A stretch of 64,000 nt of DNA from contig DATBBR010000046.1 in assembly GCA_036270875.1 (NCBI GenBank), forward strand, positions 9,925-73,924, in the 5' to 3' direction. The position numbers and the translations under genes were made by a program. This document shows positions 2,773-13,364 of the stretch, in pieces. Each line of letters begins with the position of its first letter. Within the stretch, counting starts at the first letter, position 1. This DNA is from Acidimicrobiales bacterium. Its GTDB lineage: Bacteria; Actinomycetota; Acidimicrobiia; Acidimicrobiales; AC-9. The notes below the pieces were generated by a model. The model had not been told where the DNA came from, ran no database searches, and saw nothing but the letters and a program-made list of their open reading frames with translations.

Positions 2773-3393
2773 TTACCCGAGCGCGAACCCCACGACCGTT
2801 TCGAGCTCGGCGATGGCGCGAGCGGGGTCGTCCACCTTGATCGTCGTCATGCCGAGGGCCCGGGCCGACTTCAGGTTGACACCGAGATCATCGAGGAACA
2901 CGGACTCACTGGGCGCCACGCCGAGCTCGGCGCAGGCCAGCTCGTAGAAGCGAGGGTCGGGCTTGCGAACACCGATCCGACTCGACTCGACGATCACGTC
3001 GAACAGCTCGCGGATCTCGGTCATCGCCGGATCGCCGTCCGGAAGGGTGAAGTTGTTCGTGAGCGCCGCGGTCCGCAGCCGTTCCTGGCAGCGGCGCACG
3101 GCGGTCACCATCGCCGGGCGGATCTCACCGGCCAGGAGTCGCATCACGGCGGCGGCGTCGAGCTGGTGACCAGCGCTGCGGGCCTCGGCCTCGAAGAGCC
3201 GGCAGAACTCCTCGAAGCTCACGGCGTTGCGCTCGAGGCGGGCCCAGGCGTTGTCGTCGGAGTTGGTCGCGTTCAGCGAGCGGATGAAGCCGTCCGGCAG
3301 CCCGTGGGCCCGCTCGTAGTCGGTGAAGGCCTCGAACGGGCTGGTCAGGATCACCCCGCCGAGGTCGAACAGGACGGCCTTCAGCTCGGTCAT
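2773..3393 (-). CDS. HAD-superfamily hydrolase (IA-like phosphatase)
   Basis: Start taken at internal ATG 3393 (MTELKAVLFDLGGVIL, HAD motif I). Later motifs are SSRIGVRKPDPRFY and FLDDLGVNL. The 119 upstream codons of the 325-aa ORF are Arg/Pro-rich and non-homologous. Confidence 0.85.
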   Translation of the reverse strand: MTELKAVLFDLGGVILTSPFEAFTDYERAHGLPDGFIRSLNATNSDDNAWARLERNAVSFEEFCRLFEAEARSAGHQLDAAAVMRLLAGEIRPAMVTAVRRCQERLRTAALTNNFTLPDGDPAMTEIRELFDVIVESSRIGVRKPDPRFYELACAELGVAPSESVFLDDLGVNLKSARALGMTTIKVDDPARAIAELETVVGFALG

Positions 3394-3497
3394 TCGCCCA
3401 ATCGTAGGGAGGCGGCCAGGCCCGGAAGGGCCCCTGGCCCCGCTCGCTCCCAGCCCGATCGCCCACAGGGTCGCCGCCGGATGGTTGACTACAGGAA

Positions 3498-5078
3498 ATG
3501 GCATATCGGCGCGTCGTTGTGGACGGGTCCAACATCGCCACCGAGGGTCGCTCCGTTCCGAGCCTGGCCCAGCTTGACGAGGCGGTCCGGGAGTTTCAGC
3601 GCGAGTTCCCGGACGCCGAGGTGACCGTGGTGGTCGACGCCTCGTTCGGGCACCGGATCGACGAGTCGGAGCGCCCGGCGTTCGACGAGGCCGAGGCGCA
3701 CGGCGAGATCGTGTCTCCTCCCGCTGGCGCCATCGGCAGGGGCGACGCATTCCTCCTCCGCATCGCCGAGAAGACCGGCGCGACCGTGCTGTCCAATGAC
3801 TCGTTCCAGGAGTTCCACGGCGAGCACGACTGGCTGTTCTCCCAGTCGCGCCTGGTCGGAGGCAAGCCGGTGCCCAGCGTGGGCTGGATCTTCACCGCTC
3901 GCACACCGGTCAGGGGTCCGCGCAGTCGAGTGGCGACACAGGACGCCAAGCGCACCCGGGTGCGGGTCGGCTCCAAGGAGGCGTCGAAGCCGATGCCGGT
4001 GCCCGCAGTGCCGCCGCCCGGCAGAGGCCGGCGGGACGGAGGGCCGAAGGAGCCCGAGGACGGCGCCGGGGCGGTCAGGGACGCCACGCCTCCCGCCGAC
4101 CCAAAGGTTCGCCAGGCCATCGCCGCCGCCACCGAGGAGGTCGTGTCGCCCCAGACATCCTCGGGCGGTCGTCGTCGCCGGCGAGGATCCGGGCCCCCAC
4201 CCCAGGCGGTCAACGATCCTCTGACGTTCATCAGGTTCATCGCCGAGCACCCCCTGGGCCAGCTGGTCGAGGGCGAGGTGGAGAGCTTCACGTCGCACGG
4301 CGCCTTCGTGCGGGTCCAGAATGCGCAGGCCTACGTGCCGGTCTCCGGTCTCGGCGACCCGCCTCCCCGCAGCGCCCGGCGGGCCCTGCGGCGGGGGGAG
4401 CGCCGTCCCTTCGTGCTCCAGGCCCTGGACCCGCAGCGGCGGGGGGTGGAGCTGGCGCTGCCGGAGTTCGCCCACGTGGCCGGGTCGCCCAGCGAGGAGA
4501 CGGTCGAGGCCGAGATCTCGGAGGCGACGGGCACCGACGAGGTGGTCCCCGACGCCGAGCGGGGCGCAGCGCGCAAACGGGTCCAGAAGGCGACGGCCCC
4601 AGAGAAGGCGTCCGAGAAGGCGAAGGACGGGAAGGGCAGGCGGCGAGCCGGGAAGGGCGATGGCCCGGCCCAACAGGCCAAGGCGGCGACGACCAAGAAG
4701 GCCAAGGCTGGTGCGGCCAAGAAGGCGAAGGCTGGTGCGGCCAAGAAGGCCAAGGCCGCACCGGCGAAGGCGGCGGCCAAGACGGCGGCCAAGGCCGGGA
4801 AGACCACGAAGCCATCCAAGGCGACCAAAGCCCCGGTGACCAAGTCCCCGGTCACCAAGTCCCCGGCCTCCAAGTCCCCGGTCGCCAAGACACAGGTGAC
4901 CAAGACCCGTGTGAGCAAGGCCCCCGCGACCAAGGCCAAGGCGACCAAGAAGACGGCGGAGAAGGCGACGAAGAAGGCGACGAAGGACGCGTCGGCGGGA
5001 GCGACGGCCGGAGCCGAGGCCAAGGCCCCGGTCAGGACCGCGACGGCCAGGGCGTCCGAGGGCCGGGCCAAGAAGTAG
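3498..5078 (+). CDS. NYN (Zc3h12a-like) ribonuclease domain + S1 RNA-binding domain + Lys/Ala/Pro-rich histone-H1-like C-terminal tail
   Basis: RRVVVDGSNIA, VVVDASFGH and GATVLSNDSFQEF match the Zc3h12a-type NYN signature. GQLVEGEVESFTSHGAFVRV is S1/OB-like. The last ~150 aa are AKKAKAGAAKKAKAGAAKKAKAAPAKAAAK plus PVTKS-type pentapeptide repeats. Confidence 0.8.
   Translation: MAYRRVVVDGSNIATEGRSVPSLAQLDEAVREFQREFPDAEVTVVVDASFGHRIDESERPAFDEAEAHGEIVSPPAGAIGRGDAFLLRIAEKTGATVLSNDSFQEFHGEHDWLFSQSRLVGGKPVPSVGWIFTARTPVRGPRSRVATQDAKRTRVRVGSKEASKPMPVPAVPPPGRGRRDGGPKEPEDGAGAVRDATPPADPKVRQAIAAATEEVVSPQTSSGGRRRRRGSGPPPQAVNDPLTFIRFIAEHPLGQLVEGEVESFTSHGAFVRVQNAQAYVPVSGLGDPPPRSARRALRRGERRPFVLQALDPQRRGVELALPEFAHVAGSPSEETVEAEISEATGTDEVVPDAERGAARKRVQKATAPEKASEKAKDGKGRRRAGKGDGPAQQAKAATTKKAKAGAAKKAKAGAAKKAKAAPAKAAAKTAAKAGKTTKPSKATKAPVTKSPVTKSPASKSPVAKTQVTKTRVSKAPATKAKATKKTAEKATKKATKDASAGATAGAEAKAPVRTATARASEGRAKK
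4695..4766 (+). repeat. In-frame 24-nt tandem repeat (about 3 units, KKAKAGAA) in the basic tail
   Basis: aagaaggccaaggctggtgcggcc / aagaaggcgaaggctggtgcggcc / aagaaggccaaggccgcaccggcg, read directly. Confidence 0.9.
4833..4952 (+). repeat. In-frame 15-nt tandem repeat (8 degenerating units, P-V/A-T/S-K-S/T pentapeptides)
   Basis: ccggtgaccaagtcc, ccggtcaccaagtcc, ccggcctccaagtcc, ccggtcgccaagaca, caggtgaccaagacc, cgtgtgagcaaggcc, cccgcgaccaaggcc, aaggcgaccaagaag. Confidence 0.9.
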
Positions 5079-5125: not shown

Positions 5126-5932
5126 ATGGCACCGATGCGGATAGCCACCTGGAACGTCAACTCGCTGAATGCCCGGCTGCCCAGGGTCGAGGAGTGGATC
5201 GCGTACGCCCAGCCGGACGTGCTGTGCATGCAGGAGACCAAGGTGGCGGACGCCACCTTCCCGGCGATGGCATTCGCCACCCTCGGGTACGAGGCGGTCC
5301 ACAACGGCACCGGCCGATGGAACGGGGTGGCCATCGCCAGCCGGGTCGGCATCAAAGATGTGTCGGCCGGCTTCTCCGACGAGGGCGGGAGCAAGGCTGC
5401 CGAGGGGCGCTTCGTCAGCGCCATCTGCGGCGACGTGAGGGTGTCGAGCGTCTATGTCCCGAACGGGCGGAGCGTCGGGAGTGAGCACTACCAGGCCAAG
5501 CTGGACTGGCTGGCCGAGCTGCGTGCCTATCTGATGCGGACCTGCGATCCGATGGCACCGATGGCCGTCTGCGGCGACTTCAACGTCGCTCCCGAGGACC
5601 GCGATGTCTGGGACCCGTCGCGCTTCGAAGGCGCCACCCACGTCAGCGCGCCCGAACGAACGGCGCTCGCTCAGCTGGAGGAATGGGGCCTGGTTGACGC
5701 CTTTCGTCAGCGATATGACGAACCTGGCCTGTTCTCGTGGTGGGACTACCGGGCGGGTGACTTCCATCAGCATCGTGGGATGCGCATCGACCTGATCCTT
5801 GTCACCAGACCGCTGGTCGGGCGGGTCGGATTCGCCCTGATCGACCGCTTCGCCCGCAAGGGCAAGCTGCCGTCCGACCACGCGCCCGTCCTCGTCGACT
5901 TCGACCTCGAGGGAGCAGCGCTCACTCCCTGA
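5126..5932 (+). CDS. xthA: Exodeoxyribonuclease III (AP endonuclease)
   Basis: MRIATWNVNSLNARL, DVLCMQETK, WDYR, SDHAPV. The start could be ATG 5126 or ATG 5135. Confidence 0.93.
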   Translation: MAPMRIATWNVNSLNARLPRVEEWIAYAQPDVLCMQETKVADATFPAMAFATLGYEAVHNGTGRWNGVAIASRVGIKDVSAGFSDEGGSKAAEGRFVSAICGDVRVSSVYVPNGRSVGSEHYQAKLDWLAELRAYLMRTCDPMAPMAVCGDFNVAPEDRDVWDPSRFEGATHVSAPERTALAQLEEWGLVDAFRQRYDEPGLFSWWDYRAGDFHQHRGMRIDLILVTRPLVGRVGFALIDRFARKGKLPSDHAPVLVDFDLEGAALTP

Positions 5933-5983: not shown

Positions 5984-6280
5984 TCAGATCAGCTGGGTGC
6001 GGAGCTTCGTCAGTCCCGATCCGAGGCTGGCCCGCAGATCGGCGCGGGACAACCCAGTGTCAGCGTGAAGCTGCTTCATTGACCTGATCTCGTCACCGCC
6101 GACCCCGAAGCGGGCACCGATCAGGAGCCGCTCGAGTGGTTCGAGCTCGTCGAGGACCCGGTCAGGGAGAGAACGCACGGAGACGAGGTCCTCATCGATG
6201 ACGGCGGTGGGATCCACGAGCCCGCCGTCGTCGTCCGGGTAGGGCCATCCGTCCTCGCTCGGCCACATGAACGAACCCAT
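5984..6280 (-). CDS. Small acidic protein with sigma-70 region-4-like HTH, downstream of the helicase gene
   Basis: ATG 6280 is preceded by a GAAAGGGG Shine-Dalgarno. The C-terminal half (LEPLERLLIGARFGVGGDEIRSMKQLHADTGLSRADLRASLGSGLTKLR) resembles a region-4 HTH. It lies on the same strand, 57 nt downstream of the helicase stop. Confidence 0.55.
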   Translation of the reverse strand: MGSFMWPSEDGWPYPDDDGGLVDPTAVIDEDLVSVRSLPDRVLDELEPLERLLIGARFGVGGDEIRSMKQLHADTGLSRADLRASLGSGLTKLRTQLI

Positions 6281-6337
6281 GCCCCTTTCTCGCGCCGTTG
6301 GCACCTGCCGTCAACCCTGCGGGCGCGGGGCACGGCC

Positions 6338-8936: not shown

Positions 8937-9767
8937 ATGCTGAAGTCCTTCGACGGCGGCCGGCTCTTCGGCGCGTCCTATGGTGGCGACGGGACGCCGT
9001 GGCTGCTTGCCCTGCACGGGTGGGCGCGCACGCACCAGGACTGGCGCGCCGTGCTCGGGGCGCGAGACGCGGGAACGGTGCCGCAGGGGAGCTCTCCGGC
9101 GACCCGACCCTCGCGGATCGGTGACCCGTCGGTCGACGAGTCGGGAGGACTGGACGCGATGGCCTCGGTGGCCCTGGACCTTCCGGGGTTCGGGGCGACG
9201 CCACCGCCGCCCGAGGCCTGGGGATCGGCCGAGTACGCGGCCGCCGTCGCGCCCGTTCTCGCGGAGCTGGAGGTGCCCACGGTGGTCGTGGGCCACTCGT
9301 TCGGTGGCCGGGTCGCGGTCCACCTGGCCGCCGCCCAGCCGGGCCTCGTGAAGGCGCTGGTGCTGACCGGTGTGCCGCTCGTGCGCCAGGCTGCAGGAAG
9401 CCGTCGCCCACCTCTGCGGTACCGGGTCGGTCGAGCGCTGTACGGGCGGGGGCTCGTCGGCGAGGACCGGATGGAGACGCTGCGCCAGCGCTACGGCTCG
9501 CCCGACTACCGGGCCGCCACCGGCGTCATGCGCCAGGTCCTCGTCCGGACGGTGAACGAGACCTACGACGACCAGCTGCGCGCCTTGCGCTGCCCGGTCG
9601 AGCTCGTGTGGGGCGACGACGACACCGAGGTTCCCGTCTCGGTCGCCGAGACGGCGGCGAGGCTACTGGCCCGCCCAAACCTGACCGTGTGTCGCGGCGC
9701 AGGCCATCTCGTCCCGCTCACCGCCCCCGACGCGCTCCGTCAGGTCATCGAGCGCCACCGGCCATGA
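8937..9767 (+). CDS. Alpha/beta-fold hydrolase
   Basis: Start at ATG 8937 (MLKSFDGGRLFG). LALHGW, nucleophile elbow GHSFGGRVA, C-terminal GAGHLVPL. A Pro/Ser/Gly-rich insertion precedes LDLPGFG. The stop overlaps the next start (ATGA). Confidence 0.85.
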   Translation: MLKSFDGGRLFGASYGGDGTPWLLALHGWARTHQDWRAVLGARDAGTVPQGSSPATRPSRIGDPSVDESGGLDAMASVALDLPGFGATPPPPEAWGSAEYAAAVAPVLAELEVPTVVVGHSFGGRVAVHLAAAQPGLVKALVLTGVPLVRQAAGSRRPPLRYRVGRALYGRGLVGEDRMETLRQRYGSPDYRAATGVMRQVLVRTVNETYDDQLRALRCPVELVWGDDDTEVPVSVAETAARLLARPNLTVCRGAGHLVPLTAPDALRQVIERHRP

Positions 9768-11500
9768 GTGCCCTCGACATCGCCGTCGTCGCCAGCGCGG
9801 TGGCCGGCTCGGCACTGGCTGGTCTCCGTTGGCTCCGGGTCGCGCAGCGGGAGCACTACCTGGCCGGTTCGGTCACCCGGTTCGCCCTCCGCTGGTGGTG
9901 GGGGGCGGTCAGCTTCAACCGATTGCTCGCGATGGTGGCGGTCCTGGGCTTCCTCGTCACCCTCTCGTTCGCTCCGGCCGGGTTCGCCCCCGCGGCCGTC
10001 GTGGCCCTTGGGCCGGTGGGCCTCTCGCTGCGTGGGCGCACCGCCAAGCTGGTGTGGACCAGGCGCCTCCGGACACTCGCCGTGGTGTGGGCCGCGCTCC
10101 AGGCTGTCGTGGTGGTGGCCGGACTGGCGGGAGGAGTCGGCCCCGTGGTGGCGGTCGCCGGCGCCCTGCTCGTGCCGCCGCTGGTCGACGCCGCCTGTGC
10201 CCTGACCGCCCCGTTCGAGCGCCGCTTGGCCGATCGCTTCGTCGGCGAGGCGACCACCAAGCTGCGCCGGCTGGCACCGATCGTCGTCGGGATCACCGGC
10301 TCCTACGGCAAGACCTCGACCAAGGGGTACGTGGGCTACCTTCTCGCCTCGACCCGAGCTGTCGTCGTCAGCCCCGCGAGCTACAACAACCGGGCCGGGC
10401 TGGCCCGCACGGTCAACGAGCATCTGGCTCCGGGAACGGAGGTCCTGGTCGCCGAGATGGGCACCTACGGCCCCGGAGAGATCGCCGAGCTCACCTCGTG
10501 GTTGAGCCCTCGCGTCGGGGTGATCACGGCCATCGGACCCGTGCACCTGGAGCGCTTCGGGTCCGAGAACCGCATCGTCGAGGCCAAGGCGGAGATCCTC
10601 GATCGAGCGGAGACAGCGGTGCTCAACGTCGACGACGCTCGTCTGCGGGCCCTCGCCGACCAGGCTGCGGCCGCGGGCAGACGGGTGTGGCGGTGCTCGG
10701 GGACAGACCGCGACGCCGACGTGTGCGCGCTCGTCGACGGCGCCGCGCTGGAGGTTCATCGCAAGGGCACCCTGATGGCCCGGGTGGACGTCGCCGACGC
10801 CCGCCCGACCAACGTGGCGTGCGCCGTGGCCGTGGCGCTCGAGCTGGGCGTGGCGGAGGCGGAGGTGGCGCGGCTGCTGCCCGGGCTGCCCGTAACGCCC
10901 AACCGCCTGAACGTGGCGGTCGGCTCCACGGGCGTCACCGTCGTCGACGACACCTACAACTCCAACCCGGCGGGCTGTCGCGTGGCCCTGGACGTCATGG
11001 GCCGCCACGGGCGCGACGGCCACCGGCGAGTGGTCGTCACCCCCGGGATGGTCGAGCTGGGAGACCGCCAGCACCCCGAGAACAGCGCCTTCGCCGCTGC
11101 GGCGAGAGCAGTCGCCACCGACCTGGTCATCGTCGGCTTCACCAACCGCAAGGCGCTGCTCGAGGGGGCCGGCGAAGACAACGTCAGGATCAGCGGGTGG
11201 CGGGCCGGAGCGGGTGGGTACACCATCGCGCCCGACGACGACGAGGAAGACGAGGACGAAGCGGACGGGGAGAGCCGGCCCGGCGCGACAGACCCTCGCG
11301 GCGCCGAGACCGAAGGCGCCGAGACCGAAGGCGCCAAGGCTTCCGGCGCCAAGACGGACGGCGACGGGGTCCCCGCCGAGCACCCCGCCCAGGAGGTCCT
11401 GGTAGGAAGCCGCGACGAGGCAGTGAGCTGGGTGAAGGCCCACCTGGGCGAGGGCGACGTCGTGCTCTACGAGAACGACCTGCCCGACCACTTCGCATGA
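9764..11500 (+). CDS. MurF-family (UDP-MurNAc-tripeptide--D-Ala-D-Ala ligase-like) Mur ligase with an N-terminal multi-helix membrane domain replacing the usual N-domain
   Basis: ATGA overlap with the upstream stop. The first ~175 aa are hydrophobic helices, followed by ITGSYGKTSTKG, SYNNRAGLARTV, AEMGTYGPGEI, DDTYNSNPAG and GMVELGD. An acidic repeat insertion sits near the C-terminus. Confidence 0.85.
   Translation: MSALDIAVVASAVAGSALAGLRWLRVAQREHYLAGSVTRFALRWWWGAVSFNRLLAMVAVLGFLVTLSFAPAGFAPAAVVALGPVGLSLRGRTAKLVWTRRLRTLAVVWAALQAVVVVAGLAGGVGPVVAVAGALLVPPLVDAACALTAPFERRLADRFVGEATTKLRRLAPIVVGITGSYGKTSTKGYVGYLLASTRAVVVSPASYNNRAGLARTVNEHLAPGTEVLVAEMGTYGPGEIAELTSWLSPRVGVITAIGPVHLERFGSENRIVEAKAEILDRAETAVLNVDDARLRALADQAAAAGRRVWRCSGTDRDADVCALVDGAALEVHRKGTLMARVDVADARPTNVACAVAVALELGVAEAEVARLLPGLPVTPNRLNVAVGSTGVTVVDDTYNSNPAGCRVALDVMGRHGRDGHRRVVVTPGMVELGDRQHPENSAFAAAARAVATDLVIVGFTNRKALLEGAGEDNVRISGWRAGAGGYTIAPDDDEEDEDEADGESRPGATDPRGAETEGAETEGAKASGAKTDGDGVPAEHPAQEVLVGSRDEAVSWVKAHLGEGDVVLYENDLPDHFA
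11300..11359 (+). repeat. In-frame 15-nt tandem repeat (GAETE, GAETE, GAKAS, GAKTD) inside the acidic insertion of the MurF-like protein
   Basis: ggcgccgagaccgaa x2, then ggcgccaaggcttcc and ggcgccaagacggac. Confidence 0.9.
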
Positions 11501-12689: not shown

Positions 12690-13364
12690 GTGACTCACGC
12701 TGCCGTGGGAGCGACCAGGTGGGTCGATACCCTTTTCCTGGTGCCGATCCCTCGAAAGCTGCTGAACGAGGGCGAGCAGGTCGTCGTCGACCTCCGCCCG
12801 CATTGGTCATTCCTCATCGGGCCGGTGCTGGGGGCGATCGGTGTCATTGTCGTGGCCGTGGCGATCCTGGTGGCGTTCCCGTCGGCCCCGGGAGTCGTCA
12901 TCGTCGCCGTGCTGCTCTTCCTTGCCGGCGCCATGGTCTGGCTCGCCGGCCGGTATGCCCGGTGGGCCAGCACCAGCTTCGTGCTGACCAACAGCCGCGT
13001 GGTGTACCGGACCGGCGTCCTCATCCGCCACGGACGCGAGATCCCGCTGGAGCGGCTGAACGACATCACGGTCCACCAGTCGATCCTGGAGCGCCTCGTG
13101 GGCTCGGGTCGGCTCTATGTCGAGTCGGCGGGACGGATGGGGGAGGAGGCGTTCATCGGCGTGCCCCACTGCCTGGCGGTGCAGAAGGCCATCCACCAGC
13201 AGCTGGAGCAGTCGCGGCGCCGGTGGGCCGAGCAGTCGGTCGGCCGGGTGCCCCTCACCGTCCCCGAGCAGCTCGAGAAGCTCGACAATCTGTGTCGCCG
13301 CGGTGTGATCACGAGGGCCGAGTTCGACGCCGAGAAAGCCCGGCTCCTCGACCACCTACGCTGA
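12690..13364 (+). CDS. Membrane protein with bacterial PH (bPH_2/YdbS-like) domain and C-terminal SHOCT domain
   Basis: LLNEGEQVVVDLRPHW, then two TM helices, then VLTNSRVVYRTG. The C-terminal LEKLDNLCRRGVITRAEFDAEKARLL is the SHOCT signature. An alternative GTG start lies at 12741. Confidence 0.75.
   Translation: MTHAAVGATRWVDTLFLVPIPRKLLNEGEQVVVDLRPHWSFLIGPVLGAIGVIVVAVAILVAFPSAPGVVIVAVLLFLAGAMVWLAGRYARWASTSFVLTNSRVVYRTGVLIRHGREIPLERLNDITVHQSILERLVGSGRLYVESAGRMGEEAFIGVPHCLAVQKAIHQQLEQSRRRWAEQSVGRVPLTVPEQLEKLDNLCRRGVITRAEFDAEKARLLDHLR

Follow-up and report, generated by a model that had tools for sequence, protein, structure and literature searches.

Our profile, structure-prediction and comparative analyses suggest that one gene at positions 3498 to 5078 (+ strand) of a 64,000-nucleotide stretch of DNA from an Acidimicrobiales bacterium (GenBank assembly GCA_036270875.1, contig DATBBR010000046.1; the whole stretch is called the window below) encodes a housekeeping, metal-dependent endoribonuclease specific to the class Acidimicrobiia. 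In this protein a nuclease domain of the NYN type would be kept on RNA or another polyanion by an S1 domain together with a long Lys/Ala tail, a reading to which we give a probability of about 0.6. The open reading frame (ORF) is complete, with 526 residues and a stop codon, and begins at the first possible ATG; from N- to C-terminus it runs NYN domain, basic linker, S1 domain, acidic linker and Lys/Ala tail. That a NYN domain, an S1 domain and a histone-H1-like tail share a single frame had been proposed from short motifs in an earlier reading of the DNA (the original prediction), and we find it borne out by Pfam, AlphaFold2 (AF2), Foldseek and family profiles, with both RNase_Zc3h12a and S1 above their curated Pfam cut-offs. 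All of the motifs quoted then are present in the translation (DGSN at residues 9-12, VVVDAS at 44-49 and SNDSFQEF at 99-106), together with SHGAFV at residues 266-271. An identical protein (100%) from an Acidimicrobiales metagenome-assembled genome (MAG) is present in NCBI nr as "S1 RNA-binding domain-containing protein", and relatives currently go in NCBI under that name or as "hypothetical", with some called "histone H1-like repetitive region-containing protein".

The NYN domain and its active site

The NYN/PIN-like domain is of the Zc3h12a type and spans residues 1-150 (3498-3947, +), including a conserved β-hairpin and helix extension at residues 112-150. Pfam places PF11977 (RNase_Zc3h12a) at residues 3-112 with an E-value of 2.6e-10 (40.7 bits against a cut-off of 23), and at E ≤ 1 it returned no other NYN family, neither PF05991 (NYN_YacP/Rae1) nor PF01936 (LabA-like NYN) among them. 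An AF2 model of residues 1-330, built on 23 diverse family members, contains two confident domains with a disordered linker between them, and the predicted local distance difference test score (pLDDT) of the NYN domain exceeds 90. Its predicted PIN-like α/β/α fold resembles that of the MCPIP1 nuclease domain: compared with the PDB in Foldseek, it matched MCPIP1/Regnase-1 (3v34 and 5h9v, template modelling (TM) score ~0.65, 23-25% identity, against 22-25% for the Regnase-type group as a whole), 7ndk and the PRORP1/2 nuclease domains at a probability of 1.00; normalised to the target, the TM score was 0.62-0.67 for 3v34, 5h9v and 7ndk, and ZC3H12C was matched as well. A family profile of the domain retrieved only Zc3h12a-family chains from the PDB, led by ZC3H12A (2.2e-5) and KHNYN (4.9e-5) and followed by ZC3H12C and ZC3H12B (to 9e-4). 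Phosphotriesterases had topped the single-sequence search of the PDB (E ~0.01), and we dropped these as chance matches after the profile gave Zc3h12a-family chains alone.

We mapped the active site onto Regnase-1 through the alignment of the family profile to ZC3H12A. The DGSN motif (3522-3533, +) contributes D9 and N12, equivalent to Regnase-1 D141 and N144, the GRGD motif (3735-3746, +) contributes G82 and D83 at the D225 and D226 positions, and SNDSFQEF (3792-3815, +) contributes S99, D101 and E105 at the positions of S242, D244 and D248. A further acidic residue, D47, lies in VVVDAS (3627-3644, +) at the C-terminal end of strand β2, two residues past the strand itself (residues 40-45 in the AF2 model), where Regnase-1 has a Pro. 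All of these residues, as well as N100, are invariant in the 23 diverse members, down to 41% identity, and because the acidic and polar positions are held over this range the active site appears to be under selection. In MCPIP1, D226 binds Mg2+ directly while D141, D225 and D244 do so through water, and each of the four Ala mutants is inactive (PMC3413151). Three of these four essential Asp residues are kept here (D9, D83 and D101), and the fourth position, that of D225, is an invariant Gly (G82). The C-terminal ends of strands β1 and β2 adjoin in the parallel sheet of PIN-type folds, and because of this D47 probably completes the metal site and, judging by fold topology, may compensate for the missing D225; we take the spacing of D9, D47, D83 and D101 to resemble the classical four-Asp NYN pattern. 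The acidic signature had been read at the outset as a plain Zc3h12a arrangement, with conservation of the catalytic Asp residues as its check. This stands for D9, N12, D83, S99, D101 and E105, and D9, D47, D83 and D101 are indeed invariant, but the arrangement departs from that of Regnase-1 in having Gly for D225 and in the extra D47.

The domain thus shares PF11977, the same fold and equivalents of D141, N144, D226, S242, D244 and D248 (the last as E105) with Regnase-1/MCPIP1, ZC3H12B-D, KHNYN and N4BP1, and it resembles Regnase-1, KHNYN and N4BP1 also in that a small PIN-like nuclease is joined to a separate RNA-binding module. In our protein, however, that module is an S1 OB fold in place of a CCCH zinc finger or KH domain. 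It further differs from Regnase-1 in the invariant Gly for D225, in the additional invariant D47, in its long polycationic disordered tail, and in being bacterial and confined to Acidimicrobiia among the best 80 of at least 588 matches. We did not find a CCCH zinc finger after the nuclease domain, as the region following it is a disordered basic linker and the 526-residue translation contains no Cys. With no such finger and an altered pocket, the protein has a Zc3h12a-type domain but is not a Regnase orthologue. Other bacterial NYN-type PIN-like nucleases, namely Rae1/YacP (PF05991), LabA-like NYN proteins (PF01936) and a CRISPR-associated NYN RNase, are similar in kind, whereas our domain groups with Zc3h12a/PRORP instead of with the Rae1/YacP and LabA-like families. 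The protein does belong to the bacterial PF11977 group, which Matelska et al. (2017, PMC5499597) separated evolutionarily from the eukaryotic one and listed as of unknown function, the sole published statement about bacterial PF11977 proteins that our literature searches turned up. That survey counted 154 bacterial sequences and mentioned no S1/OB fusion, whereas we count 354 clusters and at least 588 species with a three-part layout.

The S1 domain, the linkers and the Lys/Ala tail

Residues 241-325 (4218-4472, +) form the S1 domain, which is of the bS1 repeat type and in which an N-terminal helix leads into an antiparallel OB β-barrel of five strands. Pfam assigns PF00575 (S1) to residues 251-320 (E = 1.4e-5, 25.8 bits against a cut-off of 22), and the AF2 model of the domain has a pLDDT of ~97, with strands at residues 256-265, 268-273, 276-281, 302-311 and 316-320. 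Foldseek matched it to the C-terminal domain of Mycobacterium tuberculosis RpsA (4nni/4nng/5ie8) at a root-mean-square deviation of 1.3-1.8 Å, and to other S1 domains including that of PNPase. Searched against the PDB, the S1 family profile covered four to five repeats of E. coli bS1 (E = 1.6e-32) and also reached the M. tuberculosis RpsA domain at 3.6e-9 (single RpsA domains at ~1e-9) and the PNPase S1 domain at ~1e-4; in this profile even the short helix preceding the barrel can be aligned with the linkers between bS1 repeats. Helix and barrel together are best aligned to bS1 repeats 3-6 and the RpsA C-terminal domain; unlike these ribosomal proteins, a single S1 copy is here fused to a nuclease, and against the NCBIfam rpsA models the protein scores far under their cut-offs. 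From its family membership, the S1 domain would be expected to bind single-stranded RNA.

The two folded domains are joined by a basic, disordered linker (residues 151-240, 3948-4217, +; net charge +7), in which pLDDT falls below 50 at residues 175-199 and 212-231 and AF2 places a short helix at residues 202-212. This linker gave no Pfam match, and it holds the conserved motif GSKEASKPMPVP at nucleotides 3969-4004 and an RRRRR run at 4170-4184. The second linker (residues 326-372, 4473-4613, +) is acidic, with a net charge of -4, and carries a conserved SPSEETVEAEI (EETVEAEI at nucleotides 4494-4517) and a predicted short helix at residues 333-343. We observed that the motifs of these otherwise disordered linkers, GSKEASxPMPVPKxPPP (3969-4022) and SPxEETVEAEI (4485-4517), are kept down to ~58% identity, and each may act as a short linear motif for interaction.

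The remainder of the protein, residues 373-526 (4614-5075, +), is a histone-H1-like Lys/Ala/Thr/Pro tail of 154 residues with 24.7% Lys, 29.9% Ala and 12.3% Thr, an isoelectric point of 11.2 and a net charge of +38. It is predicted to be fully disordered (pLDDT 32-43, zero secondary structure), its DNA is built of tandem repeats with periods of 24, 12 and 15, and it is the sole Lys/Ala segment of this type in the 64-kb window. Nucleotides 4701-4748 encode two AKAGAAKK octapeptides, and nucleotides 4823-4949 a (T/S)K(S/A)PV pentapeptide array with a 15-nucleotide period and 8.5 copies, in which three KSP units recall the S/T-P-x-K motifs of linker histones. Such tails are common in the family: 190 of 214 members run at least 60 residues beyond S1 (median tail 173 residues, longest 452), and in 178 of these 190 the tail is basic (at least 15% Lys+Arg). 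It drifts much faster than the folded part: between relatives whose folded parts share 98% identity, that of the tail drops to 64%, with many indels, and what is conserved is its composition and not its sequence or length.

The comparison of the tail with H1-like tails made in the original prediction holds in that the segment is Lys/Ala/Pro-rich, basic, disordered and repetitive. The resemblance is one of composition, however, for the tail of the window protein gave no match to PF07382 (HC2) at E ≤ 10, and its only hit, Extensin_1, scored 25 bits where the cut-off is 105. In precomputed Pfam assignments many of its homologues do match HC2. Lsr2, which had been named in the same breath, is to our knowledge not a Lys/Ala-tail protein. 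HupB/HupS, DdbA of Streptomyces, AlgP of Pseudomonas and chlamydial Hc2 have low-complexity Lys/Ala/Pro/Thr repeats, similar to ours in composition only. In those proteins the fold that carries the tail is DNA-binding or regulatory (HU, DksA-like); in ours the tail follows an RNase domain and S1.

Family distribution and gene neighbourhood

The family is large. Of 8000 candidates in a word-indexed protein search, 6862 proteins had E ≤ 1e-3, and an exhaustive search of 50%-identity representatives gave 1143 clusters at E ≤ 1e-3, a number that falls to 793 at a threshold of 1e-10 and to 354 at 1e-30; nearly all of the best 150 clusters are full-length NYN+S1 matches, with lengths of 310-770 residues. 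In a scan of GTDB species representatives, relatives are encoded by at least 588, and the best 80 of these at least 588 matches, which make up the 80-locus set used below, are MAGs throughout, under the labels Acidimicrobiia, Acidimicrobiales, Acidimicrobiaceae or, generically, Actinomycetota. The layout had at first seemed without a characterised bacterial example, and this stands: our literature searches found no study of the family and no characterised member. The family is by no means rare, however, and is already annotated by machine. Each locus has one copy of the gene, and there is no paralogue in the window. We noted that the MAG bin MHr1A1B1C__bin_13 has the gene on two contigs (L045 and L052), in the same gene neighbourhood each time; a mixture of strains or redundancy between contigs is the probable cause, and not true paralogy. 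PADLOC models, GenBank phages, PLSDB plasmids and IMG/VR contigs gave zero matches to the protein, and on the last three we rejected an origin from a mobile element. Being single-copy, syntenic and free of phage, plasmid, viral and defence matches, the gene bears the marks of vertical inheritance as a core chromosomal gene of Acidimicrobiia, and not those of a mobile element or of a gene for toxicity or defence.

Many of the 80 loci are cut by contig ends, and their neighbours were found by tblastn. Upstream in the window lies sucA/kgd, assigned by Pfam as encoding the 2-oxoglutarate dehydrogenase E1 component (96-2768, +), and the same gene is found upstream on the same strand in 67 of the 80 loci. 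Between the two, a HAD-family hydrolase (2773-3396, -; PF00702, PF13419) is a divergent neighbour, present in 29/80. Downstream an XthA-like exonuclease III/AP endonuclease (5126-5932, +; PF03372, E = 3.7e-31) starts 47 nucleotides after our gene on the same strand and recurs in 53 of the 80 loci, with a UvrD/HRDC helicase further downstream in 28. A promoter and terminator scan around the gene gave no promoter and one terminator-like site on the minus strand, within chance expectation, with none on the plus strand, and the gene may be co-transcribed with xthA. In members at 41-44% identity (L081-L083) the sucA adjacency is kept, with or without the HAD gene, while xthA is not downstream, and its absence from the most divergent members weakens a functional link between the two. 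The persistence of sucA down to 41-44% identity is unusual and has no obvious functional rationale. In two of these divergent loci (L082, 9507-11204; L083, 4994-6682) an ABC-F type ATPase (ABC_tran - ABC_tran_Xtn - ABC_tran) sits directly downstream on the same strand in the place of xthA; the ABC-F class includes ribosome-binding translation factors.

Three further features of the window drew our attention. A 106-residue ORF between xthA and the UvrD/HRDC helicase (5984-6304, -) had no Pfam match at 1e-5 and is found by tblastn in the same place in 14/80 loci; most likely it is a genuine small gene that has been conserved. Close to its C-terminus, a Mur-ligase-like ORF (9608-11500, +; Mur_ligase_M, Mur_ligase_C) contains an insert of acidic, low-complexity sequence (DDDEEDEDEADGE...ETEGAETEGAKASGAKTDGDG), and just downstream of ddl a protein with Pfam bPH_2 (bacterial PH domain) and SHOCT domains is encoded at 12690-13364 (+).

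Proposed function and its alternatives

In the mechanism that we favour the NYN domain would be the catalytic unit, with the acidic cluster at the C-terminal edge of its parallel sheet holding Mg2+. A flexible, Arg-rich linker of ~90 residues would tether it to the bS1-type S1 domain, which would capture single-stranded RNA and so take the part played by the CCCH finger or KH domain in Regnase-1, KHNYN and N4BP1. The disordered Lys/Ala tail (~150 residues, net +38) would then add non-specific, high-avidity binding to a polyanion, for which RNA, ribosomes, nucleoid DNA and possibly polyphosphate are candidates; this tethering would raise the local concentration of the enzyme on its substrates and may localise it to ribosomes, the nucleoid or RNA-rich condensates. 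Targeting to any of these three is plausible. All characterised domains of the Zc3h12a family are endoribonucleases (PMC5499597; PMC3413151), and for our protein we infer both RNase activity and RNA, rather than DNA, as the substrate. Several observations weigh against the proposal. The residue equivalent to Regnase-1 D225, essential there (D225A is inactive, PMC3413151), is an invariant Gly, and that D47 makes up for it is deduced from the topology of the fold. Taken singly, the sequence scores barely over the Pfam cut-off for S1, and the frequent xthA and UvrD-like neighbours are DNA-repair genes. Lastly, the H1-like tails of characterised bacterial proteins are reported mostly to bind DNA (HupB/HupS, DdbA) or, in AlgP, to be associated with granules of polyphosphate, so that the tail offers no specific argument for RNA.

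Some of these points could be read as signs of a DNA-directed, nucleoid-bound nuclease that works with the downstream XthA in base-excision or flap repair, the OB fold binding single-stranded DNA and the tail the chromosome. The short gap to xthA with no plus-strand terminator-like site, the recurrence of xthA and the UvrD/HRDC helicase near the gene, the inclusion of FEN-type DNA nucleases in the PIN-like superfamily (PMC5499597) and the reported DNA binding of the H1-like tails of HupS and DdbA all fit this idea. We nevertheless consider it improbable, as the domain groups with Zc3h12a/PRORP, all of whose characterised members are RNases, and not with FEN. The OB fold, too, is an S1 domain of the bS1 type in particular, and the adjacency of xthA, lost at 41-44% identity where that of sucA persists, looks like inherited gene order. 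About equally improbable is a catalytically inactive binder of RNA or nucleic acid whose NYN fold is a binding module only; it might be a chaperone or be associated with the nucleoid or the ribosome. The invariant Gly at the position where D225A abolishes MCPIP1 activity speaks for it, and S1 and the polycationic tail would by themselves bind nucleic acid strongly. However, seven polar or acidic active-site positions, including the equivalent of the Mg2+ ligand (D83), are invariant to ~41% identity, an extra invariant Asp (D47) stands at the end of β2 next to β1, and this pattern of conservation is typical of active NYN domains, not of degenerate ones. A more far-reaching version of the RNase proposal would make the protein a principal mRNA-decay or rRNA-processing endonuclease of Acidimicrobiia, an analogue of RNase E or RNase Y with a catalytic domain of the Regnase type, whose tail drives association with the nucleoid or ribosome or the formation of RNA-protein condensates. 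We regard this as a long shot of much the same order. The likeness to RNase E/G, and to RNase Y, is one of design only, in that an endonuclease, S1 and a long stretch of basic, disordered sequence are combined in a single chain. The catalytic domains are unrelated (NYN/PIN versus the DNase-I-like/RNase H-like core of RNase E), and no Pfam, PDB-sequence or fold match links our protein to RNase E/G.

Two other explanations are far less probable still. VapC-type toxins and defence effectors are common among bacterial PIN-like nucleases (PMC5499597), and a CRISPR-associated NYN RNase is reported to exist. For our protein a role as a toxin or anti-phage effector is already disfavoured, and very improbable, given the zero matches in PADLOC, phages, plasmids and IMG/VR, the lack of an antitoxin-like partner among its neighbours (sucA, the HAD hydrolase and xthA), a synteny that is stable over at least 80 species, and GC and GC3 (the GC content of third codon positions) like those of the neighbouring genes. 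The last of the alternatives is that the layout is an artefact of assembly or annotation in which a frameshift has joined what are really two genes, one for a nuclease and one for an H1-like protein, so that the tail would be an ORF of its own, a possibility raised with the original prediction. Several long ORFs in alternative frames do overlap the region, as is usual at the ~70% GC of the window, but GC3 is even and high throughout the single annotated frame (0.84-0.94 in every segment, 0.90 overall and 0.91 in the tail, similar to sucA and xthA), for which reason we consider those ORFs the usual high-GC artefacts. The gene as a whole also matches its neighbours in GC content. Moreover, the same continuous architecture is found in hundreds of homologues from independent assemblies, with 190 of 214 members running at least 60 residues past S1. 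The artefact explanation is already refuted, and we leave it next to no weight.

The kind of protein proposed here, a PIN/NYN endoribonuclease with an accessory RNA-binding domain, is already known, and what is new is the variant with S1 and a polycationic tail. What is known of Zc3h12a-type nucleases comes almost entirely from immunity and RNA surveillance in eukaryotes (Regnase-1, KHNYN and N4BP1), whereas the bacterial branch described here is a conserved, single-copy chromosomal gene of fixed architecture across a large and mostly uncultured class of actinobacteria. It would also present an alternative arrangement of the Regnase active site, with D47 as a possible stand-in for D225. Should the protein prove to be ordinary, the family is still a well-defined candidate for annotation. 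If it were indeed an analogue of RNase E or RNase Y, it would give the Regnase/KHNYN nuclease domain its first characterised counterpart in bacteria, with the ancestral four-Asp active site. And if it is an active RNase of whatever scope, it would be a new player in bacterial RNA metabolism and would offer a simple system for understanding how an RNase is brought to its substrates by a tail that is charged and disordered.

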